Source: Arsukibacterium sp.
GTDB taxonomy: Bacteria; Pseudomonadota; Gammaproteobacteria; Enterobacterales; Alteromonadaceae
Direction of reading: 5' to 3'
DNA length: 64,000 bases
NCBI RefSeq assembly: GCF_033721375.1
Contig: NZ_JAWWAP010000004.1
Span: 240,662-304,661, forward strand
Every line of letters begins with the position of its first letter. Positions within the stretch are counted from its first letter, which is position 1. The notes beneath the pieces were generated by a model, which was given only the letters and a program-made list of their open reading frames with translations, had not been told where the DNA came from and searched no databases. Positions 17,420 through 63,624 of this stretch are shown here, one piece after another. Made by a program: the position numbers and the translations under genes.

Positions 17420-18238
17420 ATGAAAAATCTGCAACCACTTATGCAACCTCTTTTGCAACCACTAAGCCCGCTGCAAATTCGCCAACAGTGCCGCAGTGGT
17501 CAGTTCAGCGCTACCACCTCGGGTTTGGCGCCAGGCTTTGTTCAGGCCAATATGGTCATTTTACCAAAGCAGTATGCCGCCGATTTTTTGCAGTTCTGTC
17601 ATTTTAACCCTAAGCCCTGTCCGCTGCTGGGCATGGCGGCAATGCCCGGCGCCATTGATATGCCGGCGCTGGCGCAGCAGCTGGATATTCGCCGCGACTT
17701 ACCCAGATACCGGATTTTCCAGGATGGCAAGCTGAGCAATGAAGTCACTGATGTCACAACGTACTGGCGGGATGATTTAGTGACTTTCCTGATTGGCTGC
17801 TCGTTTTCGTTTGAAGAATCTTTACTGGCCGATGGCCTGGAGATCCGTAATATCACCGAACAGGTCAATGTGCCAATGTATCGCACCAACCTTGAGTGCA
17901 CCCCGGCAGGGGCATTTCACGGCGGTATGGTGGCCAGTATGCGGCCAATGACCCCGGCCGATGCCATCCGGGCTATTCAGATTTGCTCGCGTTTTCCTCA
18001 GGTACACGGCGCGCCGGTGCACTTTGGCGATCCGGCCGCTATTGGTATCAGCAATATCGATAAACCCGATTTTGGTGATGCAGTCACAATAAAACCGGGC
18101 GAAGTACCGGTATTCTGGGCCTGCGGTGTTACGCCTCAGGTCGCTATAGCCAATGCCAAAGTAGACTTTTGCATTACTCACAGCCCCGGCCATATGCTGG
18201 TACTGGATGTCCCAAACAGCAAACTATCAATACTTTGA
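17420..18238 (+). CDS. DUF1445/UPF0317 putative hydro-lyase (D-glutamate cyclase-like)
   Basis: The N-terminal block [38 protein letters not shown] matches the conserved signature I recall for the UPF0317 putative hydro-lyase family. 272 aa is the typical length. Confidence 0.8.
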
Positions 18239-22959: not shown

Positions 22960-23703
22960 ATGCTACTTAATTGCGATTTAGGTGAAAGCTTCGGCAGCTG
23001 GACCATGGGCCTCGACAGCCAGGTTATGCCTTATATCGACCAGGCGAATATTGCCTGTGGTTTTCATGCCGGCGACCCTGATGTAATGCAGCGTACGTTG
23101 CAACTGGCAAAACAGCATGGCGTGCAAATTGGCGCTCATCCGGCCTATCCTGATCTTAACGGCTTTGGCCGGCGCAGTATCCAGTGCTCGCACAATGAAA
23201 TTATTAACCTGCTGCATTATCAGATTGCCGCACTGGAAGGCATGGCGCAGTGTTACGGCTTAAGCTTGTGTTACGTAAAACCGCACGGTGCCCTGTATAA
23301 CGATATGATGAGCAAACCGGCAATCTGGCAGGCAGTACTGCAGGCCATTGCCAGCTACCATAAACCGCTGAAACTGATGCTGCTGGCCGATAATAACCGG
23401 CCAACTTATCAGCAACAGGCAGCAGAGCTTAAAGTTGAACTGTTGTTTGAAGCCTTTGCCGATCGCCGCTACACCGATGATGGCAAACTAACGGCGCGCA
23501 GCGAAAAAGGCGCGGTGCTGCATGGCAACGATGTCCTCGCCCAGGTAAATGAGTTAATTAACGATGGCAGTGTTACCACCGCCAGCGGCCAGCGCCTGGC
23601 GCTGCATGCCGATACCCTGTGCGTGCATGGCGATAATCCGGGCGCCGTTGAGCAGGTAGCGCAAATCCGGGCGCTGTTAAACCGCGCTCAGGCAGCAACA
23701 TGA
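22960..23703 (+). CDS. pxpA: 5-oxoprolinase subunit A (LamB/YcsF family)
   Basis: MLLNCDLGESFGSWTMG...IACGFHAGDP...GAHPAYPDLNGFGRR is the LamB/YcsF signature. First gene of a translationally coupled pxpABC set. Confidence 0.9.
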   Translation: MLLNCDLGESFGSWTMGLDSQVMPYIDQANIACGFHAGDPDVMQRTLQLAKQHGVQIGAHPAYPDLNGFGRRSIQCSHNEIINLLHYQIAALEGMAQCYGLSLCYVKPHGALYNDMMSKPAIWQAVLQAIASYHKPLKLMLLADNNRPTYQQQAAELKVELLFEAFADRRYTDDGKLTARSEKGAVLHGNDVLAQVNELINDGSVTTASGQRLALHADTLCVHGDNPGAVEQVAQIRALLNRAQAAT

Positions 23704-24410
23704 CCAGCAGCCAGCCGCTGTACCAGTTAACCCTTGCCGGCGAAAATGCGGTTATGGTCTATTTCGAACAGAAAATGGCGCCGGATATTGCCGGATTAGT
23801 ACAGCAGGCCGCCACGCTTATCCGGGAGGCCCTGGGGCCGCATCTGCTGGAGCTGCTGCCCTCTTATGCCTCGGTTATGGTGGTGTTTAACCCCTTTAGC
23901 TGCGATCATTTTACCGTTAAACACTTGCTGCGTCAGGCCCTTAGCAACCTTAGCGCCAACAAGCAGCAGTCCGGCCGGCGTATTGAGTTGCCGGTTTATT
24001 ACAGCGAGCAAAGCGGCCCCGATCTGGCGCTGATTGCCAGAACCAAACAGCTGACAATTGATGAAGTTATAAAACTGCACCAGCAGCAGATTTACCGGGT
24101 ATATGCCATCGGTTTTGCGCCGGGTTTTGCCTATCTTGGCGAAGTAGCCGAACAACTGGCGATGCCGCGCTTAAAAACACCACGCGCCAAAGTACCCCGC
24201 GGTGCCGTCGCCATTGCTGATCGCCAGACTGCGGTATATCCGGCAGTATCGCCCGGCGGCTGGAATTTAATCGGCCTGTGCCCTACGCCGATGTTTCAAC
24301 CGCATAAGCAGCCGGCAATGCCGGTTGCGGTCGGTGACGAAGTGCAGTTTGTTGCTATCAGCAAAACCGAGTTTTTAGCCCTCGGTGGCGAGATTGGTGG
24401 CGAGCTATGA
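23700..24410 (+). CDS. pxpB: 5-oxoprolinase subunit B (KipI/allophanate hydrolase subunit 1 family)
   Basis: 236 aa with a typical CT_C_D pattern (YRVYAIGFAPGFAYLG...PRGAVAIADRQTAVYP..SPGGWNLIG). Its start overlaps the pxpA stop. Confidence 0.88.
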   Translation: MTSSQPLYQLTLAGENAVMVYFEQKMAPDIAGLVQQAATLIREALGPHLLELLPSYASVMVVFNPFSCDHFTVKHLLRQALSNLSANKQQSGRRIELPVYYSEQSGPDLALIARTKQLTIDEVIKLHQQQIYRVYAIGFAPGFAYLGEVAEQLAMPRLKTPRAKVPRGAVAIADRQTAVYPAVSPGGWNLIGLCPTPMFQPHKQPAMPVAVGDEVQFVAISKTEFLALGGEIGGEL

Positions 24411-25429
24411 GCCATTTTCAGGTACTTAACCCCGGCGTCCTCAGCCTTATTCAGGACAACGGCCGCTTTGGCCAGAGCCAGCTTGGCTTAACCAACGGCG
24501 GCCCGCTCGATGTCGGCTCGGCGCGCCTGGCGAATGCCCTGGTAGGAAACGGTGCCAATGCTCTTGTTGGTAACGGTGCCCTGGTAGGTAATACTAATAC
24601 AACTACCGCCAATGCCAGCTTAATAGAATGCAGCATCGGTGGCCTGCAACTGCAGGCCCACTGCGCCACTACTTTTGCCGTTACCGGCGCCAGGGTAGCG
24701 CTGACTGTAAATGGCCAGCCAAAAGCGCTGTGGCAAAGTCATTCTGTGCAAAGCGGCGATATTATCGAGCTGGGTATGGCAAGCCAGGGCCTGCGCGCTT
24801 ATTTAGCAGTGGCCGGCGGCTTTACCATTACTCCGCAGTTTGGCAGTAGCGCCACGGTTATGCGTGAGGGTATCGGCGGCCTGGATCAAAACGGCGCCAA
24901 ACTGCAGCCTGGCGATAAGCTGCCATTAACCACCAGCACTGCCCTGCCAGGCCGGAGTTTAGCTAAAGCGCTGCAACCCGATTTTAATTTCAGCAAAGGC
25001 CTTACCCTGCGTCTGATTGAGGGTTATCAGAGCCCATTATTCAGTACAGTTGAGCGCCAGCGCTTTTATCTTAATAGCTATACTGTTACTCCAAAAGCCG
25101 ACCGGATGGGCGTTACACTTAGCGGCCCGGCTATCAGCTGCAGTAGCACCAGCCTGTTATCTGAAGGAATCTGTTATGGCGCGGTGCAAATACCCCCTGA
25201 TGGCCAGCCAATTGTACTACTTAATGATCGACAGACCCTGGGCGGCTATCCGAAAATAGGCAGCGTGCTGTCACTCGACTGCTGGCAACTGGCCCAGGCC
25301 CCTGCCGGCACCGTATTACAGTTTGTTAAAACCGACCCGCAGCAAGCCCATAATGCGCTGTTGCTGGCGCAGGCCCGTTATCAGCGAATGCTGCAACAAC
25401 TTGACGGAGTGACAAATGCCAACTGCTGA
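24407..25429 (+). CDS. pxpC: 5-oxoprolinase subunit C (KipA/allophanate hydrolase subunit 2 family)
   Basis: Aligns with E. coli PxpC/YbgK (LSLIQDNGRFGQSQLGLTNGGPLD, SDRMGVTL, GAVQIPPDGQPIVLLNDRQTLGGYPKIG). Contains an in-frame tandem duplication at 24533-24592. Confidence 0.88.
   Translation: MSHFQVLNPGVLSLIQDNGRFGQSQLGLTNGGPLDVGSARLANALVGNGANALVGNGALVGNTNTTTANASLIECSIGGLQLQAHCATTFAVTGARVALTVNGQPKALWQSHSVQSGDIIELGMASQGLRAYLAVAGGFTITPQFGSSATVMREGIGGLDQNGAKLQPGDKLPLTTSTALPGRSLAKALQPDFNFSKGLTLRLIEGYQSPLFSTVERQRFYLNSYTVTPKADRMGVTLSGPAISCSSTSLLSEGICYGAVQIPPDGQPIVLLNDRQTLGGYPKIGSVLSLDCWQLAQAPAGTVLQFVKTDPQQAHNALLLAQARYQRMLQQLDGVTNANC
24533..24592 (+). repeat. in-frame 24-bp tandem duplication within pxpC
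   Basis: aatgccctggtaggaaacggtgcc / aatgctcttgttggtaacggtgcc / ctggtaggtaat encodes NALVGNGA-NALVGNGA-LVGN. The two full units differ only at synonymous positions. Confidence 0.85.
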
Positions 25430-26288
25430 TTTGCTACAGCTTAGCCAGCAAATAGAACAGTTACTGGTCGCCCGTAATTTACGTGGCATGCAGCTGCTGC
25501 AGCAACAGCTGCGCCCCGGCTATATCCTGCGCACAGCCCGGCTAATAAATCAGTGCCAGGGTACGGTATTAATTGGCACCGGTTTTCCGGTACTCGATAC
25601 CTTTGAAACCGATGGCCCGGTTGGCGCCATTGCGCTGTATCAGCTACTGGAGCAACTGGGAGCCAAACCGGTGCTGATAAGCGGTAATCCGCTGTGCAGC
25701 GTACTGGCCAGCCGCTATCTTACTTATCAGATTAGCGTTAATCAGCAGCACAACCTGCCGGCAATTGCCAGCGCGGCATTGGCAGAACTGCAGCCACAGT
25801 TAATTATCTCCATTGAACGGCCCGGTTTTACCGCCAATAATCGTTACGCCAATATGCGTGGCGAAGATATTACCGAGCGCTGCGCCAGTTTCGACCATTT
25901 TTTAAGCCTGGCTGGCTGCCCCACTATTGGTATTGGCGATGGCGGCAATGAAATTGGCATGGGCAATATGGCAGAGTTTTTAGGCCAGCTGAATATTACC
26001 CCGGCCGTAACCGAATGCGACGAGCTTGTAGTTGCCGACGTGTCTAACTGGGCAGCCTGGGGTATTATTGCCATGGTATCAGTACTACAGGGCCGCGATT
26101 TATTGAGCGGCGCAAACCCGCTGGCCATTTTGCAGTTTTTATCAGCCCACGGCAGTGTTGATGGCGTCACCCGGTTAAATACGTTAACTGAAGATGGCCT
26201 GGCCCATACTGAAGGCGAGCAACTGATTAATGAATTAAAAGCTCTGGTTGAAGAACCAAATCGAGTTGCCCACGCCAACACGCCGTAA
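25416..26288 (+). CDS. DUF4392-family protein (D-glutamate cyclase-like accessory domain)
   Basis: 290 aa. GTGFPVLDTFETDGPVGA and IGIGDGGNEIGMGN resemble the DUF4392 conserved blocks as I recall them. The start overlaps the pxpC end by 14 nt. The last roughly 10 codons and the stop lie inside repeat element 26258-26354. Confidence 0.65.
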   Translation: MPTADLLQLSQQIEQLLVARNLRGMQLLQQQLRPGYILRTARLINQCQGTVLIGTGFPVLDTFETDGPVGAIALYQLLEQLGAKPVLISGNPLCSVLASRYLTYQISVNQQHNLPAIASAALAELQPQLIISIERPGFTANNRYANMRGEDITERCASFDHFLSLAGCPTIGIGDGGNEIGMGNMAEFLGQLNITPAVTECDELVVADVSNWAAWGIIAMVSVLQGRDLLSGANPLAILQFLSAHGSVDGVTRLNTLTEDGLAHTEGEQLINELKALVEEPNRVAHANTP

Positions 26289-26354
26289 ATACATCCCTGT
26301 AGGCTCGTTTCCGCCCGTCCAGGGCTTCAACGGTCGGCTTAGGGCAAATCGATT
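26258..26354. repeat. palindromic intergenic element, family 2, copy A (about 97 bp)
   Basis: About 83 nt (cacgccaacacgccgtaaat...ttccgcccgtccagggcttcaacggtcggcttagggcaaatcgat) match 35774-35856 with roughly a dozen mismatches. The terminal arms aatcgagttgccc and gggcaaatcgatt are inverted repeats. Confidence 0.65.
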
Positions 26355-26409
26355 CGTTTTAAAAAGTTCGTATCAGGTTCCGCACAACCGATTTTAAAGT
26401 GAGAACAGC

Positions 26410-27276
26410 ATGAGCATAGTGTATTTAAATGGTGATTTTATCCCGGCCGCAGAGGCCAGAATTTCACCGATGGATCGCGGTTTTTTATTTGGCGACGGCA
26501 TTTACGAAGTTATCCCCAGCTACAATGGTCGCTTTGTCGGCTTTAAGCCGCATATCGCCCGCATGCAGGATGGCCTGGCCCAACTGTCAATTGAACCTGG
26601 TTTGGCGCTTGCCGACTGGCAAAGCATTTGCCAGCGCCTGCTTACTGATAACCGTGCTACCAATGGCGATAATCAGGCAGTGTATATTCAGGTTAGCCGC
26701 GGTACCGATACCAAGCGTAACCATGCATTTCCGGCTAATATCAAAGCCACCGTCTTTGCCTATGCCTTCCCAATCGCCGCCGAACCGGTGGCCGATAAAA
26801 GTAAAGCTACCACTTTTAATGTTGTCACCGGCCAGGATTTGCGCTGGCAGCGCTGCCATATTAAATCAACATCATTGCTGGGCAACGTGTTGCATTATCA
26901 GCAGGGGTACGCCAGTGGCGCCCAGGAAATACTGCTGTTTGATAAAGACGGCAACTTAACCGAGGGCGCTGCAGTAAATGTGTTTGTTATAAAAGACGGC
27001 GTTATCGCCACGCCGCCGCTTACCACTAAATTACTGCCAGGTATTACCCGCTTATTGCTATTAAATATTCTGCGCAAACACAGCAGCATCAAAGTAGAAG
27101 AGCGCGATATTTCCGAGCAGGAAGTATTCGCCGCCGACGAAATCTGGCTTACCAGCTCCAGCAAGGAAATAGCGCCGGTACTCAAAGTAAACGAGCATAC
27201 GGTAGGCACAGGCGAAGTTGGCGATGTCTGGCTGGCGGCGCAACAGCTATTTAGCGCCCATAAGTATGATGAGTAA
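26410..27276 (+). CDS. dat: D-amino-acid (D-alanine) aminotransferase, fold-type IV PLP enzyme
   Basis: DRGFLFGDGIYEVIPSYNG and especially DLRWQRCHIKSTSLLGNVL parallel Bacillus Dat (DIRWLRCDIKSLNLLGAVL, with the catalytic Lys). 288 aa. Confidence 0.82.
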   Translation: MSIVYLNGDFIPAAEARISPMDRGFLFGDGIYEVIPSYNGRFVGFKPHIARMQDGLAQLSIEPGLALADWQSICQRLLTDNRATNGDNQAVYIQVSRGTDTKRNHAFPANIKATVFAYAFPIAAEPVADKSKATTFNVVTGQDLRWQRCHIKSTSLLGNVLHYQQGYASGAQEILLFDKDGNLTEGAAVNVFVIKDGVIATPPLTTKLLPGITRLLLLNILRKHSSIKVEERDISEQEVFAADEIWLTSSSKEIAPVLKVNEHTVGTGEVGDVWLAAQQLFSAHKYDE

Positions 27277-35762: not shown

Positions 35763-35857
35763 ACCGATTCACCCACGCCGACACGCCGTAAACCCATCCA
35801 TGGGGTCTCGGTTCCGCCCGTCCAGGGCTTCAACGGTCGGCTTAGGGTAAACCGATG
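35763..35857. repeat. palindromic intergenic element, family 2, copy B
   Basis: It matches 26258-26354. The arms caccgattcaccc and gggtaaaccgatg are imperfect inverted repeats. Lies between zapD and yacG. Confidence 0.65.
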
Positions 35858-50999: not shown

Positions 51000-52330
51000 A
51001 GCTTCAGCTCCTTAACCGCTTTGGCAAACAATTCGCCGCGCTGGGCATAACTTTTAAACATATCCAGGCTGGCACAGGCCGGTGATAACAACACCATATC
51101 GCCACTCTGAGCCAGTTTGGCGGCCTGCTGAACTGCCGCAGTTAAATCTTTTACCTGAATAGCGTGCGGGTGCAATGAGGCAATGGCCGGGCCATCCTGC
51201 CCCAGGGTGATGACATGGCTGACATCACGCTGCAACACCGGTTGTAGTTCAGTAAGATCAGCCCCTTTGCCATCGCCACCGGCAATCAGGATTAGCTTGC
51301 CACTGATCTCAGGCCGCAGGCCGGCAATTGCCGCCAGCGTTGCGCCAATATTGGTGGCCTTAGAATCATTGATCCAGCGAACCCCTTTGTCTGAGCGAAC
51401 CAGCTGGCAGCGATGAGCCAGGCCACCGAACTGCTGCAAGGTGCGGACAATGGCCTTTCTGTTTGCGCCTGCGCTAAGCGCTAATGCCGCAGCCGCCAGC
51501 GCATTAAACTGGTTATGGCTACCGGTAATAGCCAGCTGACTGACCGGCAATAAAGGTTCACCGGCAACGTTAAGCCATGGCTCACCTTTTACCGTTGTAA
51601 TGCCGTAGTCAGCGTCTTGCAGGCTAATCGCCAGCCGCTCAGCCTCACCTGCTGCAGCACCCGGATAGGTTAACGGGTCCGCCTGGTTATAAACGGTCAG
51701 CTCGCTATGCTGATAAACCCGCTGTTTTGACGCCGTATAGGCGGCCATATCAACATAACGGTCCAGGTGGTCGGCACTGACGTTCAGCAAACAGCTGGCC
51801 CGGCTTTGCAGGCTGATTGTGGTATCTAACTGAAAACTGGATAGTTCCAGCACAAATACGGCTGCATCCTGCTGGCGGATGGCATCCAGTACCGGTAAAC
51901 CAATATTGCCGGCGGCGACAGCGTTAATACCGCTTTGCTGCAGCATTTCCGCCACCAGCGTGGTGACAGTCGACTTGCCATTAGAGCCGGTGATAGCAAT
52001 AACCGGTTTTTGATTAAAACGACCAAACAGTTCAACATCGCCCAGCACTTCCACGCCCTGCGCTTTGGCAAAGCGAATGGCCGGGTGGCTGAGAGCCAGC
52101 CCGGGGCTGACAATAATCATGTCCATTTGTGCCAGCCGGTTGGCGTCAAACTCGCCCAGGTAAATCCCGTCTACCTTGTCGGCCGCAATTTGCTCCAGCC
52201 CGGCAGGTTTGCTGCGGCTGTCCATCAGTACCGGTTTTACCCCATGCGCCAGCAAAAAGCGTACTGTGGCCAGACCCGACAGGCCCAGCCCCACTACCGC
52301 TATGCGTTTGGCGTTAAGGTTCGTTTGCAT
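50996..52330 (-). CDS. murD: UDP-N-acetylmuramoylalanine--D-glutamate ligase
   Basis: IAVVGLGLSGLATVRFL and ITGSNGKSTVTTL. 444 aa. Confidence 0.96.
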   Translation of the reverse strand: MQTNLNAKRIAVVGLGLSGLATVRFLLAHGVKPVLMDSRSKPAGLEQIAADKVDGIYLGEFDANRLAQMDMIIVSPGLALSHPAIRFAKAQGVEVLGDVELFGRFNQKPVIAITGSNGKSTVTTLVAEMLQQSGINAVAAGNIGLPVLDAIRQQDAAVFVLELSSFQLDTTISLQSRASCLLNVSADHLDRYVDMAAYTASKQRVYQHSELTVYNQADPLTYPGAAAGEAERLAISLQDADYGITTVKGEPWLNVAGEPLLPVSQLAITGSHNQFNALAAAALALSAGANRKAIVRTLQQFGGLAHRCQLVRSDKGVRWINDSKATNIGATLAAIAGLRPEISGKLILIAGGDGKGADLTELQPVLQRDVSHVITLGQDGPAIASLHPHAIQVKDLTAAVQQAAKLAQSGDMVLLSPACASLDMFKSYAQRGELFAKAVKELKL

Positions 52331-52333
52331 CAG

Positions 52334-53416
52334 TTATCTCAGTTTCAGGGTCGCCAGACCCACCAGCACAAAAATGATCGATAATATCCAGAAGCGGACA
52401 ATAACCCGCGGCTCCGGCCAGCCTTTTAATTCGTAGTGATGATGAATGGGTGCCATCCGGAAAATCCGCTGGCCCCGTAATTTGTATGATCCCACCTGCA
52501 GAATGACTGACACCGTTTCAATGACAAAAATGCCGCCCATAATAAACAGCACAATTTCCTGGCGGACTAAAATAGCAATCACGCCCAGCACAGCACCCAG
52601 TGCCAGGGATCCGACATCGCCCATAAAAACCTGGGCCGGATAGGTGTTAAACCACAGAAAGCCCAGACCGGCGCCGATCATCGCTGCGCACAGCACCACC
52701 AGCTCACTGGCATAGGGCAGATAAGGGATATTCAGATAACCGGCAAAATTCACGTTACCACTGGCATAAGCAATAATGGCAAAAGCGCCGGCGACCATAA
52801 TGGTGGGTACTATCGCCAGGCCGTCCAGGCCATCGGTCAGGTTAACGGCATTGCTGGTACCGACGATAACAAAGTAACTTAACGCCAGAAATAGCAGCCC
52901 CAGCTGTGGCATCACATCTTTTAAAAACGGCACCAGCAGCGCGGTTTCAGCCGGCCGCTCTGCGGTCATATATAAAAATAAAGCAGTGATAATGGCGAAT
53001 ACCGACTGCCAGAAATATTTCCAGCGTGCGATCAGGCCTTTCGGGTCTTTGCGGATCACCTTGCGGTAGTCATCGATAAAGCCGATGGTGCCAAAACTGA
53101 CCAGCACAAACAGCACCACCCAGACATATTTGTTAGTTAAATTCGCCCATAACAGGGTACTGACCAGAATAGAGCCTAAAATCAGTAAGCCCCCCATGGT
53201 AGGGGTGCCTTTTTTCGAAAAATGGCTTTCCGGGCCATCGCCCCGCACTACCTGGCCAATCTGCATTTTCTGCAGCCGGGCAATCAGGATCGGCCCGAAA
53301 TATAAGCTTAAAAATAATGACGTTAACACGCCCAGAATTGACCGGAAGGTCAGATAGCTGAACACATTAAAAAAGCTAATGTACTGGGTTAAATATTCGG
53401 CTAACCACACTAGCAT
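52334..53416 (-). CDS. mraY: phospho-N-acetylmuramoyl-pentapeptide transferase
   Basis: MLVWLAEYL..., [22 protein letters not shown] and [11 protein letters not shown]. 360 aa, polytopic. Confidence 0.97.
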
Positions 53417-59901: not shown

Positions 59902-60156
59902 GGTAAAAACCAAGTCTGCTGATCGATAAAGATCCAGTAAAATCGGGCGCTGGCTTAAAGTTGATGATTTTGGTGGGGAAAAGTGGTGTCACTGAAAATC
60001 AGCAGGCGCAGGCTGCTGGCAATTAATTTTACTTTGCCGGCTTTTTCAGCAGAAAACTTGCTATTGCCGAATAAATTATTCAATATAAATTTACATATCG
60101 CATAACTAATTTTTTATAACCGGCTGACAGGCCGGTTGAGCCTAAGACCACCGCCT

Positions 60157-61002
60157 ATGCTGAGTTTACTAAAGATACGTGGCATGCTGGACCAAATGTC
60201 GGTTATAGAGCGCAAGCTGGCCGAGTTTATTCTGGACAATGCGCATATGCTGCGCGATTACTCGTCGCAACAGCTAGCTGATGCTGTCGGGATCAGTCAA
60301 TCCAGTGTGGTCAAGTTTTGTCAGAAGCTGGGCTATAAGGGTTATCCTGATCTGAAGCTGGCGATTAATGAAGCGGTGGTCACGGCCAGCACCCTGAGCC
60401 GGGATCAGGCCGATAAAAACAGTGATGACGGCAGCTTGATCGGCATTGGCGAGCAGTTACAGTTCAGTCTGCAGCAGCATTTACGCACCTTACTGACCAT
60501 TAATGATGAAAAAACCCTGCTAAAGGCCGCCCGCTTATTACAGGGTGCCGATAAAATATTACTGGCCGGCTTCGCCAAGTCGGCGATTGTAGTGGCAGAT
60601 ATGCAGTTCCGGCTGCTGCAACTGGGTAAACTGGCGTTGCATCATGCCGATCCGGCATTAGCATTGCAGCTGGCCCGCAGTTTAACCGACACCAGTGTTT
60701 TGCTGCTGGTCTCGGATTCCGGCCAGAACAATGATTTGCTGAAACTGGAACATTATGCCAAAAGCCGCCAGCTGAAAATTATTTCACTGACCAGCTATAA
60801 AACCAATGCCCAGAGCCTGGCGGCTGACATTACGTTGTTTACCTTAAGCGCCGAAGAAGATATCCGTTTAAATCCGATACTCACCCAGCTGGCCCAGCAG
60901 CATTTATGTCATATGCTGTATCTGCAACTTTGCCAGTGGCAGAATAACGATTTAGCCTTAACTGAAAGCACCGAATTACTGGGCCTGCTGGAAAAACCCT
61001 GA
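60157..61002 (+). CDS. RpiR/MurR-family transcriptional regulator (HTH_6 + SIS domain)
   Basis: SVIERKLAEFILDNAHMLRDYSSQQLADAVGISQSSVVKFCQKLGYKGYPDLK is the RpiR HTH. The C-terminal half is SIS-like. I prefer the ATG at 60157 to the TTG at 60136. Confidence 0.85.
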   Translation: MLSLLKIRGMLDQMSVIERKLAEFILDNAHMLRDYSSQQLADAVGISQSSVVKFCQKLGYKGYPDLKLAINEAVVTASTLSRDQADKNSDDGSLIGIGEQLQFSLQQHLRTLLTINDEKTLLKAARLLQGADKILLAGFAKSAIVVADMQFRLLQLGKLALHHADPALALQLARSLTDTSVLLLVSDSGQNNDLLKLEHYAKSRQLKIISLTSYKTNAQSLAADITLFTLSAEEDIRLNPILTQLAQQHLCHMLYLQLCQWQNNDLALTESTELLGLLEKP

Positions 61003-61066: not shown

Positions 61067-62161
61067 TCAGTCCAGCATCACCAGGCCATCAATAGCGGTA
61101 ATACCCAGTCCCGGCGCATTGCCGATAGTAATATCAGCATCATTAAAATTCACGCTGCTGCGCACCGGGTCAAAAGCACAGAGCGATGGCCCGTCTAAAT
61201 CAATTTTGGTAATAACATCAGACTTGGCTACCGCGACATGCACCGCCGCAGCCACGCTGATACTACCCTCCAGCATACAGCCAATCATGCACTGCATATC
61301 ATAAAACGAGCAGATATCAGCAATTTTAATCGCGTTGGCAATGCCGCCGGTTTTCATCAGTTTAATATTGATAATATCGGCCGCACGCATTTTGATCAGC
61401 TCTATCACTTCGCGCGGGCCAAAGCTGCTTTCATCGGCCATTACCGGGGTATGCACCCGCTCGGTAATATATTTTAAGCCCTCTAAGTCATACGCTTTTA
61501 CCGGCTGTTCCACCAACTCCAGCCGCACTCCGGCATCTTCCAGTTTACGCAGGGCATACACCGCCTCTTTGGCCGTCCAGCCCTGATTGGCATCGAGCCG
61601 GATTAACGCTTTGCCGGCTACTGCGGCATAAATGGCTTTCACCCGCTCAATATCGACGCCGATATCTTTGCCCACTTTTACCTTCAGGGTTTCAAAACCG
61701 CGGTCGATAGCGCTGAGTGAATCGGCGACCATTTTATCGATATAGTCGACGCTGATAGTGATATCAGTGGTTATTTTTGGCACACCGCCACCGAGAATTT
61801 TATATAGTGGTGCCTGATAAAGCTGGGCGAATAAATCATACACCGCCATTTCCACCGCTGCTTTGGCACTGTAGTTTTTCATAATAGCGCCCTGGATCAG
61901 CCGGATAATATGATTTAAATCGGCAATTTGCTGGCCAACCAGCTTGGGCTTTAACACGCTTTTTATCGCATCAATAATCGAGCCATGAATATCACCGGTA
62001 ATTACTGCCGTGGCAGGGGCCTCACCATAGCCAATATGGCCGGTGTCGGTTTCAATCATGACCACTACATCTTCAATTTGCTGCACGGTGCGCAGCGCCG
62101 TTTTAAACGGGGTTTTCAGTGGTATGGTAAGCATGCCCAGCCGGATGTCGGTAATTTTCAT
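61067..62161 (-). CDS. L-Ala-D/L-Glu (dipeptide) epimerase, enolase superfamily
   Basis: MKITDIRLGMLTIPLKTPFKTALRTV..., KVKVG, RLDANQGW, EQP, MADES and the DLD region match the muconate-cycloisomerase-subgroup dipeptide epimerases (YcjG/YkfB type). Adjacent to an NlpC/P60 peptidase. Confidence 0.8.
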   Translation of the reverse strand: MKITDIRLGMLTIPLKTPFKTALRTVQQIEDVVVMIETDTGHIGYGEAPATAVITGDIHGSIIDAIKSVLKPKLVGQQIADLNHIIRLIQGAIMKNYSAKAAVEMAVYDLFAQLYQAPLYKILGGGVPKITTDITISVDYIDKMVADSLSAIDRGFETLKVKVGKDIGVDIERVKAIYAAVAGKALIRLDANQGWTAKEAVYALRKLEDAGVRLELVEQPVKAYDLEGLKYITERVHTPVMADESSFGPREVIELIKMRAADIINIKLMKTGGIANAIKIADICSFYDMQCMIGCMLEGSISVAAAVHVAVAKSDVITKIDLDGPSLCAFDPVRSSVNFNDADITIGNAPGLGITAIDGLVMLD

Positions 62162-62172
62162 AGGTGCCTCGG

Positions 62173-63624
62173 TTAACGCAACGATTTAAGCGCGTATATT
62201 TTATCCAGATAACTGCTGTCGGCCGAAAGCCGCAGCGGGGTTAACGGCGTTACCGCTACCCCATTTAAAATCCCCTGATACAGCTCAGGTGTAGCGTCAG
62301 CATTTTGCCCGGACACTTTGTCAGACGCGTCGCCAGATGCTTTGTCAGACGCTTTGTAAGACTCTTTATAAGAAAAGTAGGCCAGCTCATGTACTGAGTG
62401 GATAACAAAGGGCTCGCCATTATCCTCACCCAGATACAGCATCACATGGCCCGGCCGGTAAATTAAATCACCGGCGCTGGCTTTGCTGATTGCGGCCAGT
62501 TTTTCATGCTGGCTGCTTTGGGCGCTAAAGCGGATATTCTGACCATAGCTGCCCTCGCCCTGCTGACCGGAGTTACGCGGCATCAGCAGGCCAAAGCTAC
62601 GGTAAATTTCAATAATAAAGCCGGTGCAATCCCGGCTGTCGTAATCATGGCCCCAGCCGTAGCGATCGCCCAGAAACTTAAATGCCTGCTGCAGCACGTT
62701 TGCCGGCGTATAGGGCAGATAACCGACCCTGACATCCTGCTGGCGGGCAATCAGTGCCGGGGTAAACGCCAGGCTGCCATCAGCACTGCGTAGCGGCAGT
62801 TTTACAATATAACTGGCATGCGGGTTCTGGCCATTGACGTTATGGCCGGTGTCATCAGTAGTTAACAGCGGCAGCCGGGTGCCCATATCCAGCAGCAGTT
62901 CTGAAATTGCCGGTACCGCAGGCGTATAGCTGGTATAGGCCCGGGCACCGGTTACCAGCAGAAACGGCGTTTGCTCACTGTACTCAAGTACCTGTTGCCT
63001 GCTGCCAGTAGCAACATCGGCTGCCTGCACCCAACCGGTATAATGATAATTCTGTACCAGCAGCCAATTAGCATCGTGGCTTTGGTGCAGCACCGCGACT
63101 GGCTCGCCCGGAAACAGCGCGGTTTCCTGAAAGCGGTCTAAGTCCAGCGCCATCTGTTCATTGTGCACTCTGTCTTCGGTTGGCATGCTGCGTAAATCGG
63201 TGCGCTTAACTACTAAAGCAAAACGGACCGGATTAGCAGGTTGCACGGCATCAGTATTCAGGTTTTGCCGGTAGTGCTGCCACTGGGTAGCGGTTACTGG
63301 CTGGCCATTGGCGTAAAAACGCTGCTGCTTAGCCGATGCACTGGCATTATCGATAATGTCAGCCAGCTGTGCTGCCGTAAAGCTGGCTGGTAAATCTGCC
63401 AGCCGGGTCATTTCAGGCTGTCTGGCAAAGGTTTCGCTGTTTCTGGTGCTGATTTGCGCCCCGGTTAACAACAGCCGGTCGGGATCAGCGACCTTCGCCA
63501 GCCAGAAGTCGGCACTGAGGTGATCGGGCTTTAACATAGGAATATCTGACTTCGCATAAACATTTTCCTGAACAATGCTGCTGCCTACGCAAAAAAGTAT
63601 TATTAACCAATAACCTGGTCTCAT
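62173..63624 (-). CDS. NlpC/P60-family gamma-D-glutamyl-L-diamino acid endopeptidase (YkfC-like, with SH3b-like N-terminal domains)
   Basis: Signal peptide, then the catalytic Cys context YDSRDCTGFIIEIYRSFG and the His context GDLIYRPGHVMLYLG. A low-complexity insert ASDKASGDASDKVSG lies near the C-terminus. Confidence 0.75.
   Translation of the reverse strand: MRPGYWLIILFCVGSSIVQENVYAKSDIPMLKPDHLSADFWLAKVADPDRLLLTGAQISTRNSETFARQPEMTRLADLPASFTAAQLADIIDNASASAKQQRFYANGQPVTATQWQHYRQNLNTDAVQPANPVRFALVVKRTDLRSMPTEDRVHNEQMALDLDRFQETALFPGEPVAVLHQSHDANWLLVQNYHYTGWVQAADVATGSRQQVLEYSEQTPFLLVTGARAYTSYTPAVPAISELLLDMGTRLPLLTTDDTGHNVNGQNPHASYIVKLPLRSADGSLAFTPALIARQQDVRVGYLPYTPANVLQQAFKFLGDRYGWGHDYDSRDCTGFIIEIYRSFGLLMPRNSGQQGEGSYGQNIRFSAQSSQHEKLAAISKASAGDLIYRPGHVMLYLGEDNGEPFVIHSVHELAYFSYKESYKASDKASGDASDKVSGQNADATPELYQGILNGVAVTPLTPLRLSADSSYLDKIYALKSLR

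Follow-up and report, generated by a model that had tools for sequence, protein, structure and literature searches.

In a 64,000-nt stretch of the genome of Arsukibacterium sp. (NCBI RefSeq assembly GCF_033721375.1, contig NZ_JAWWAP010000004.1, forward-strand positions 240,662 to 304,661; hereafter the window, whose first letter is position 1), the genes pxpA, pxpB and pxpC, encoding the three subunits of an ATP-dependent 5-oxoprolinase, are followed by a gene of the DUF4392 family and by dat, which encodes a D-amino-acid transaminase-like protein. These genes are the Arsukibacterium form of a conserved operon, DUF1445-pxpA-pxpB-pxpC-DUF4392-dat(-alr), where alr encodes alanine racemase (Alr). 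Translational coupling links DUF4392 to PxpC, and in certain lineages the two are fused. The reading of this operon as a D-glutamate/5-oxoproline module, in which DUF4392 is predicted to be catalytic and to work with PxpC and DUF1445, is well supported. We further propose, at a probability of roughly 0.45, that the operon runs the D-glutamate economy of the cell and that DUF4392 would invert 5-oxoproline between DUF1445 and PxpABC; the specific racemase chemistry is a guess. New here are the absence of the glutamate racemase MurI from this genome and a lineage-matched pattern between MurI and the operon, and full-text literature searches found no paper on the operon or on a role of bacterial DUF4392. 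A sequence-only reading of the same DNA had proposed a "salvage module" for D-glutamate and 5-oxoproline; the module stands, but "salvage" proves too narrow, because the genome lacks MurI and MurI loss tracks the operon.

Organization of the locus

Gene identities were assigned from the listing of open reading frames (ORFs) together with Pfam and NCBIfam profile scans, and NCBIfam bit scores are given against the cut-off of each model. The locus comprises the following features:

17420-18238, + strand: DUF1445 / UPF0317 "putative hydro-lyase" gene (PF07286, NF003969; PDB 3db9 and 2pif)
22960-23703, + strand: pxpA (LamB/YcsF), 5-oxoprolinase subunit A (PF03746, NF003816)
23700-24410, + strand: pxpB, 5-oxoprolinase subunit B (PF02682, TIGR00370)
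24407-25429, + strand: pxpC, 5-oxoprolinase subunit C (PF02626, TIGR00724)
25416-26288, + strand: DUF4392 / GLUCM-like_C gene, 290 aa, TON_0340-type two-metal enzyme (PF14336)
26258-26354, + strand: dispersed REP-like repeat (found by BLAST, with a second copy in the window)
26410-27276, + strand: dat, fold-type IV D-amino-acid transaminase-like gene (PF01063)

The models for PxpA, PxpB and PxpC are all matched by adjacent, overlapping genes, namely pxpA (PF03746, E 2.9e-94; NF003816, 357 bits, cut-off 213), pxpB (PF02682, E 7.6e-67; TIGR00370, 167 bits, cut-off 146) and pxpC (PF02626, E 3.4e-77; TIGR00724, 239 bits, cut-off 230). The pxpC product fails the PxpC equivalog model NF045499 (197 bits, cut-off 500) and appears divergent from the curated equivalog set. 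The ORF coordinates bear out the overlaps that the sequence-only reading had listed, i.e., 4 nt between pxpA and pxpB, 4 nt between pxpB and pxpC and 14 nt between pxpC and DUF4392. The start codon of DUF4392 (ATG at 25416, with GGAG ahead of it) lies inside the 3' end of pxpC, whose TGA stop codon occupies 25427-25429. The gap from DUF4392 to dat measures 121 nt, one less than the 122 nt given before. The dat product indeed belongs to fold type IV (PF01063, E 3e-47) and carries the catalytic-Lys motif RCHIKS within DLRWQRCHIKS. It scores below the cut-offs of two curated models, NF005209 (245 bits, cut-off 320) and TIGR01121 (217 bits, cut-off 277), both of which come ahead of BCAT and PabC, and its top PDB matches are the D-amino-acid aminotransferases 4m0j, 4pbc and 3daa.

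The DUF1445 gene reported earlier at 17420-18238 is real (PF07286, E 5e-67; NF003969, 411 bits, cut-off 324; PDB 3db9 and 2pif at E 1e-89), and its product is homologous to the N-terminal half of the D-glutamate cyclase of animals (DGLUCY). It lies about 5 kb upstream of pxpA. Between the two stand a membrane-receptor gene of 4 kb and a DUF3297 gene, whose insertion has displaced DUF1445 in Arsukibacterium.

In this 100%-complete genome, pxpA, pxpC, DUF4392 and DUF1445 are each single-copy, and there is one close Dat and one Alr; pxpA is likewise single-copy in four of five complete genomes that carry the operon. It follows that PxpABC has to retain a housekeeping function specific for the L-isomer, and the window PxpABC, as the product of the only pxpA and pxpC of the genome, is expected to open 5-oxo-L-proline with ATP. 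The same counts rule out a second, specialized pxpABC copy dedicated to the D-isomer.

Conservation of the operon

Gene neighbourhoods were compared in fetched related loci with ORFs called as the longest frame, and start codons and gap lengths outside the window are thus approximate. Partner counts use only loci with enough flanking sequence, so that their denominators differ from the 80 genome loci described below; many surveyed genomes are metagenome-assembled genomes (MAGs), and kinship among the locus-derived genomes is not taken into account.

PF14336 is rare in the class (3 of 401 genomes), but in the GTDB genus to which the window belongs it occurs in 24 of 24, and the order pxpA-pxpB-pxpC-DUF4392-dat is shared by each of the 17 loci fetched there. 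Two loci of another family (G152 and G319) show the longer order DUF1445-pxpA-pxpB-pxpC-DUF4392-dat. A scan of species-representative genomes yielded 80 loci from at least 25 genera, including Oceanospirillaceae-type, Halieaceae, Porticoccaceae, Thiotrichales and Alteromonadales members as well as two MAGs labelled Bacteroidia, and the six genes are colinear in 49 of these loci.

The partners recur as follows:

PxpC directly upstream of, or fused to, DUF4392: 73 of 76 loci
PxpA present with DUF4392: 68 of 69 loci
DUF1445 present with DUF4392: 61 of 67 loci
Dat within 5.5 kb of DUF4392: 49 of 56 loci
alanine racemase directly after dat (strict adjacency): 23 of 60 loci

DUF1445 stands directly upstream of pxpA in at least 49 of the 80 loci and is the first gene of the operon in most other genera. 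By flank clustering, 34 loci have a flanking alanine racemase on the same strand as the operon, and a LysR regulator is frequent between DUF4392 and dat. As the same order recurs in nearly all related loci, it is not due to chance. The co-occurrence of DUF4392 with pxp genes, dat and DUF1445 that had been anticipated from the letters alone is thus near-universal in the orthologous clade.

In two loci of the same genus (L019:9253-10103, genome G421; G401:C241:2323-3049), a frameshift or stop breaks DUF4392 into two ORFs, with the remaining operon intact.

DUF4392 is predicted to be an intact metal enzyme

The 290-aa ORF is indeed a member of PF14336, as the sequence-only reading had supposed (E 1.5e-63, 215.5 bits, cut-off 27.9, covering profile positions 4-291 of 291). 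It matches PDB 4dwz, 4fc5 and 5gkx at E 3e-34 and shares about 33% identity with TON_0340 of Thermococcus onnurineus. Crystals of TON_0340 reveal a small cavity, open to solvent, in which six invariant acidic residues bind two Mn2+/Mg2+ ions; the protein is a weak Mn-dependent phosphatase (AMP phosphatase kcat/KM 190 M-1 s-1), its apo form is inactive and its fold is nearest to the DHH/RecJ core (PMC5132392). According to a pairwise alignment and that report, the TON_0340 ligands E59, D61, E115, D157, E161 and D246 correspond to E64, D66, E134, D175, E179 and D260 of the window protein, six residues that are invariant in alignments of 40 and 31 sequences including distant homologues.

The AlphaFold2 (AF2) model of DUF4392 has a mean predicted local distance difference test score (pLDDT) of 95.3 and forms a single domain with a parallel five-strand sheet. 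Foldseek aligns it with TON_0340 structures 4dwz, 4fc5 and 5gl2 at template modelling (TM) scores of 0.73-0.82 and E 1e-21; the next fold matches are DHH NrnA/RecJ-like enzymes at a TM of about 0.4. A profile and fold search for a newer solved DUF4392 homologue found only TON_0340 and distant DHH enzymes. Because the six ligands are invariant and the model superposes on TON_0340, we conclude that DUF4392 is probably an intact metal enzyme and not a degenerate accessory protein.

Domain fusions and other neighbourhoods

Fusions were sought among representatives at 50% identity and in metagenome loci. PxpC-DUF4392 fusions occur in one representative (P0123) and three loci (L094, from a complete genome; L124; L139), and a DUF1445-DUF4392 fusion (P0240) has the reverse of the domain order found in animals. 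DUF4392 is also fused to a MurD-like ligase (L114:622-2364, L117:7881-9611 and L120:1066-2841), to NlpC/P60 domains in four representative clusters (P0195, P0203, P0232 and P0263), to a NagB-like domain (P0258) and to S-adenosylmethionine (SAM) methyltransferases (P0148 and others). In L120 the DUF4392-MurD-like fusion stands between an OplB-type oxoprolinase, of the Hydantoinase_B family and unrelated to Pxp, and DUF1445, an arrangement that would tie DUF4392 to the oxoprolinase reaction and not to any single enzyme that performs it.

DUF1445-DUF4392 pairs devoid of pxp genes are seen in five loci (L129, L142, L147, L159 and L173), and one locus (L158) has a Firmicutes-like order, Na:Ala symporter-dat-pxpB-pxpC-DUF1445-pxpA-DUF4392. 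Distant DUF4392 genes are found in strings of an AIRS/PurM-like gene, gamma-glutamyltranspeptidase, DUF4392 and a class III aminotransferase (L112, L118, L130, L155, L162, L165 and L170), or directly after TAXI-TRAP transporter genes (NMT1_3, DUF1850 and DctM; L107, L122 and L134), a transporter class that binds glutamate and pyroglutamate (PMC12344293).

What these partners share is a connection to glutamate, in most cases the D-isomer, and to 5-oxoproline. Taken together, the fusions to PxpC, DUF1445, the MurD-like ligase and NlpC/P60, along with the OplB-type neighbour and the other contexts, point to D-glutamate or 5-oxoproline as the likely substrate of DUF4392. The corresponding proposal of the sequence-only reading thereby gains support from co-occurrence and from independent domain fusions.

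In four Halieaceae genomes (G721, G699, G706 and G694), DUF4392 matches lie inside frames of 521-759 aa, which suggests further PxpC-DUF4392 or other fusions.

MurI absence and the source of cell-wall D-glutamate

No MurI was detected in the Arsukibacterium genome with TIGR00067, whose best match reaches 33 bits against a cut-off of 147, and tblastn with MurI from the same genus and the same family returned nothing but a paralogue of 25% identity, which is likewise present in relatives that have MurI. The murD product matches the canonical equivalog, and murD abuts mraY (51011-53308, - strand), the dcw cluster thus lying within the same window as the operon. Since murD abuts mraY, no slot for MurL exists there, and the MurL/MurD2 route is unlikely here, judged from this arrangement, no search aimed at MurL having been made.

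Among 121 genomes of the Amphritea family, 75 carry DUF4392 and 68 carry MurI. MurI is present in 24 and absent from 51 of the 75 DUF4392-positive genomes, and present in 44 and absent from 2 of the 46 DUF4392-negative ones (Fisher p 3.7e-13, a value that overstates the effect, as related genomes are non-independent). Among 101 Halieaceae genomes, DUF4392 is found in 95 and MurI in 1. The pattern holds only in such lineage-matched families. With TIGR00067 (E<=1e-20), MurI was detected in 136 of the 395 high-quality Gammaproteobacteria sampled and in 11 of the 41 operon genomes, and an enrichment of MurI loss over the whole-class background is unsupported; since only 34% of the sampled Gammaproteobacteria are MurI-positive, no class-level enrichment is claimed. 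The low class-level count may reflect many lineages with no canonical MurI, or a search that misses divergent forms.

PxpA occurs in 114 of the 121 Amphritea-family genomes, and in 39 of the 46 that are DUF4392-negative. DUF1445 accompanies DUF4392 in all 75 positive genomes and is present in 15 of the 46 negative ones. These 15 genomes all keep MurI, and at least 11 of them have DUF1445 about 3.5 kb from a pxpA. Four such loci (L185-L188, family of G440) read LysR-DUF1445-DctP-DctQ-DctM-pxpA-pxpB-pxpC, which looks like a cluster for TRAP-linked uptake and utilization of pyroglutamate. In genomes with this arrangement, MurI can perform the stereo-inversion that would fall to DUF4392 or Dat in Arsukibacterium.

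Dat is the textbook substitute for MurI. An operon-type Dat (>=50% identity) occurs together with DUF4392 in 74 of the 75 genomes, and every tested operon genome that has no adjacent dat has Dat elsewhere. An attempt to tell Dat from DUF4392 as the substitute for MurI failed, because Dat accompanies DUF4392 in every genome tested. Given the lack of MurI in this genome and the tracking of MurI loss with the operon, the operon Dat is probably the source of cell-wall D-glutamate here, which would make the operon biosynthetic too.

A proposed D-glutamate to L-glutamate route

In the favoured model, Alr and Dat would make D-glutamate for MurD from L-alanine, D-alanine and 2-oxoglutarate in reversible reactions. 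DUF1445, a homologue of the putative cyclase half of animal DGLUCY, would interconvert D-glutamate with 5-oxo-D-proline. DUF4392 would act at the junction of the DUF1445 step and the oxoprolinase, its likeliest reaction being a metal-assisted inversion of 5-oxoproline at C2, from D to L, and PxpABC, which would also be the only housekeeping 5-oxoprolinase of the cell, would open the ring to L-glutamate using ATP. The net result would be an irreversible valve from D-glutamate to L-glutamate in place of the reverse MurI reaction. A 5-oxoproline racemase is favoured because the inversion is the only step that has no gene and DUF4392 is the only gene that has no step, and because DUF4392 is coupled to the oxoprolinase here and to DUF1445 elsewhere.

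Several observations weigh against this model. Full-length mouse DGLUCY gave 5-oxo-D-proline and no L-glutamate, which argues against racemization by its DUF4392 domain, and humans excrete 5-oxo-D-proline (PMC5339696); the DGLUCY assays, however, contained Tris, dithiothreitol and substrate only, with no divalent metal (PMC5339696), and TON_0340 is inactive in its apo form (PMC5132392), which tempers the negative result. The only activity measured in the family is the weak Mn-dependent phosphatase of TON_0340, and the nearest fold is that of DHH phosphoesterases (PMC5132392). No computational tool separates racemase, lactamase and phosphohydrolase activities, and the DUF4392 reaction is a prediction only. 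In many lineages DUF4392 occurs apart from DUF1445 or pxp genes. Moreover, Dat and Alr already link D-glutamate to central metabolism, making the valve partly redundant, and Dat alone, the most economical substitute for MurI, could explain the MurI pattern, as it travels with DUF4392 in every tested genome.

Alternative explanations

DUF4392 and DUF1445 might instead be the two halves of a D-glutamate cyclase/ATP-independent 5-oxo-D-prolinase, a split bacterial form of DGLUCY. PxpABC would then open the L-isomer only, Dat and Alr would carry D-glutamate to 2-oxoglutarate and L-alanine, and the operon would be a utilization and repair set for both 5-oxoproline enantiomers with no need of a racemase. 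The animal fusion of both domains has proven D-glutamate cyclase activity, assayed in both directions (PMC5339696), and the adjacent pairs in five pxp-free loci, the reverse-order fusion and the presence of DUF1445 in all 75 DUF4392-positive family genomes fit this scheme. Yet each partner also occurs alone, DUF1445 in B. subtilis, C. glutamicum and the 15 family genomes, DUF4392 in archaea and numerous metagenome loci; within the operon, the coupling or fusion of DUF4392 is to PxpC, at the end away from DUF1445; the cyclase activity of DGLUCY needed no added metal, whereas DUF4392 appears to be a metal enzyme; and the scheme offers no reason why DUF4392 should be linked to two unrelated oxoprolinases. 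We therefore regard a split cyclase as rather unlikely. About equally unlikely, in our view, is a fourth component of the oxoprolinase, in which DUF4392 would hydrolyze a phosphorylated intermediate or supply a D-specific lactam site, so that the complex would also open 5-oxo-D-proline to D-glutamate, either for MurD in MurI-less cells (anabolic) or for Dat and Alr (catabolic). Such a component would account for the translational coupling to PxpC and the repeated PxpC-DUF4392 fusions, for the weak Mn-dependent phosphatase activity and DHH-like fold of TON_0340, and for the ties of DUF4392 to three kinds of ATP-dependent carboxyl/amide activators (PxpBC, the MurD-like ligase and the AIRS/PurM-like protein); a Mn2+ importer is encoded in pxp operons of other bacteria (PMC10448178), and the operon is tracked by the loss of MurI. 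However, in E. coli and B. subtilis, as in 39 of the 46 DUF4392-negative family genomes, PxpABC works with no DUF4392, the placement of DUF4392 beside the unrelated OplB-type enzyme is awkward for a scaffold-specific subunit, and with a DUF1445 cyclase in the same operon a futile cycle would result.

That DUF4392 is a metal-dependent racemase acting on glutamate itself rather than on 5-oxoproline, and thereby replaces MurI, seems improbable. Its anti-correlation with MurI, its fusions to the MurD-like ligase and NlpC/P60, the fact that every partner enzyme makes or uses glutamate and the absence of metal from the negative DGLUCY racemase assay all speak for such an activity; set against these are the constant company of Dat, the retention of MurI in about one third of operon genomes, the approximately 65% of class-level genomes that have no MurI match and nearly all lack DUF4392 as well, and the DUF4392-bearing archaea, which need no cell-wall D-glutamate. 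DUF4392 could also be a general Mn phosphatase of small molecules, carried along in the operon but uninvolved in D-glutamate or 5-oxoproline metabolism. This would agree with the weak AMP phosphatase activity (kcat/KM 190 M-1 s-1), the only one published for the family, but the conserved position of the gene in over 70 loci, together with recurrent fusions to enzymes of D-glutamate or 5-oxoproline metabolism, makes this explanation very hard to credit. Returning to the favoured 5-oxoproline inversion, a broader version can be put forward tentatively. DUF4392 may be a new kind of metal-dependent racemase, for 5-oxoproline or glutamate, which together with DUF1445, PxpABC and Dat would form a MurI-independent D-glutamate economy that has taken over from glutamate racemase in large clades of marine bacteria (among them nearly all Halieaceae and the majority of the Amphritea family), and the same activity may have been overlooked in the second domain of DGLUCY.

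Comparison with known systems

Animal DGLUCY (C14orf159 / 9030617O03Rik, EC 4.2.1.48) combines the same domain families, DUF1445 and DUF4392, and acts on D-glutamate as well as 5-oxo-D-proline (PMC5339696). In the window, by contrast, the two are encoded by separate genes 7 kb apart instead of one polypeptide, and in most other genera they flank pxpABC at opposite ends. Bacterial DUF4392 is coupled to PxpC and not to DUF1445, and the bacterial genes further include those for an ATP-dependent oxoprolinase, for Dat and, in many cases, for Alr. TON_0340 (PDB 4dwz, 4fc5, 5gkx and 5gl2-4) shares the family, fold and six acidic metal ligands of the window protein, but comes from an archaeal host that has no DUF1445, and its sole known activity is the weak Mn-dependent phosphatase (PMC5132392).

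The B. subtilis operon pxpA-ycsG-ycsI-pxpB-pxpC, as described in PMC10448178, has the same pxp genes with the DUF1445 gene ycsI clustered among them; it differs in having a Mn2+ importer in place of DUF4392, dat and alr. Bacillus-type Dat (PDB 3daa / 1daa) is a fold-type IV enzyme with the same catalytic-Lys motif and can supply D-glutamate from D-alanine and 2-oxoglutarate independently of MurI, whereas the window gene falls below the NCBIfam Dat cut-offs and is embedded in an oxoprolinase operon. The marine DgcN-DgcA pathway, as summarized in PMC12363236, resembles the favoured model in that D-glutamate is derivatized, the derivative is racemized and L-glutamate is then released in a costly, irreversible route; it uses N-acetylation instead of the lactam formation proposed here, and its proteins are unrelated. 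Neither a cyclase nor an oxoproline route appears in a 2025 catalogue of genes for D-amino acids (PMC12363236).

The DUF4392 family spans archaea, bacteria and vertebrates, and the operon and the fusions narrow its probable substrate to D-glutamate or 5-oxoproline. If the operon does supply and balance D-glutamate where there is no MurI, it would explain how whole marine families build peptidoglycan in the absence of a glutamate racemase. The turnover of D-amino acids in the sea would also gain a route that is missing from current gene catalogues (PMC12363236). Cultured isolates that carry the operon exist in Rheinheimera, Amphritea, Marinobacterium and Neptunomonas; Amphritea, Marinobacterium lutimaris and Neptunomonas antarctica offer isolates with no MurI.

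Murein-peptide genes and a REP-like repeat in the window

Near the end of the window lie three further genes:

60136-61002: RpiR/SIS regulator
61067-62161, - strand: enolase-superfamily MR/MLE enzyme, likely of the L-Ala-D/L-Glu epimerase type
62173-63624, - strand: SH3b-NlpC/P60 protein of the YkfC-like gamma-D-Glu-diaminopimelate (DAP) endopeptidase type

The MR/MLE and SH3b-NlpC/P60 neighbours look like a murein-peptide recycling pair. The sequence-only reading had described the genes at 61067-63624 as murein-peptide recycling enzymes that release D-glutamate; enzymes of the recycling types are present, but the release is doubtful, as a YcjG-like epimerase would not liberate free D-glutamate.

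The REP-like repeat (about 97 bp) encodes the final ~10 codons and the stop codon of DUF4392 and occupies most of the gap before dat. An exact inverted repeat was sought in this 3' element and not found; its RNA folds into an imperfect long hairpin (z -1.9). The C-terminal tail that the repeat encodes, with a pLDDT of 60, is the sole low-confidence part of the AF2 model. A second copy lies at 35763-35857 of the window, an exact 31-mer being common to both, and the element gives 18 BLAST hits genome-wide.

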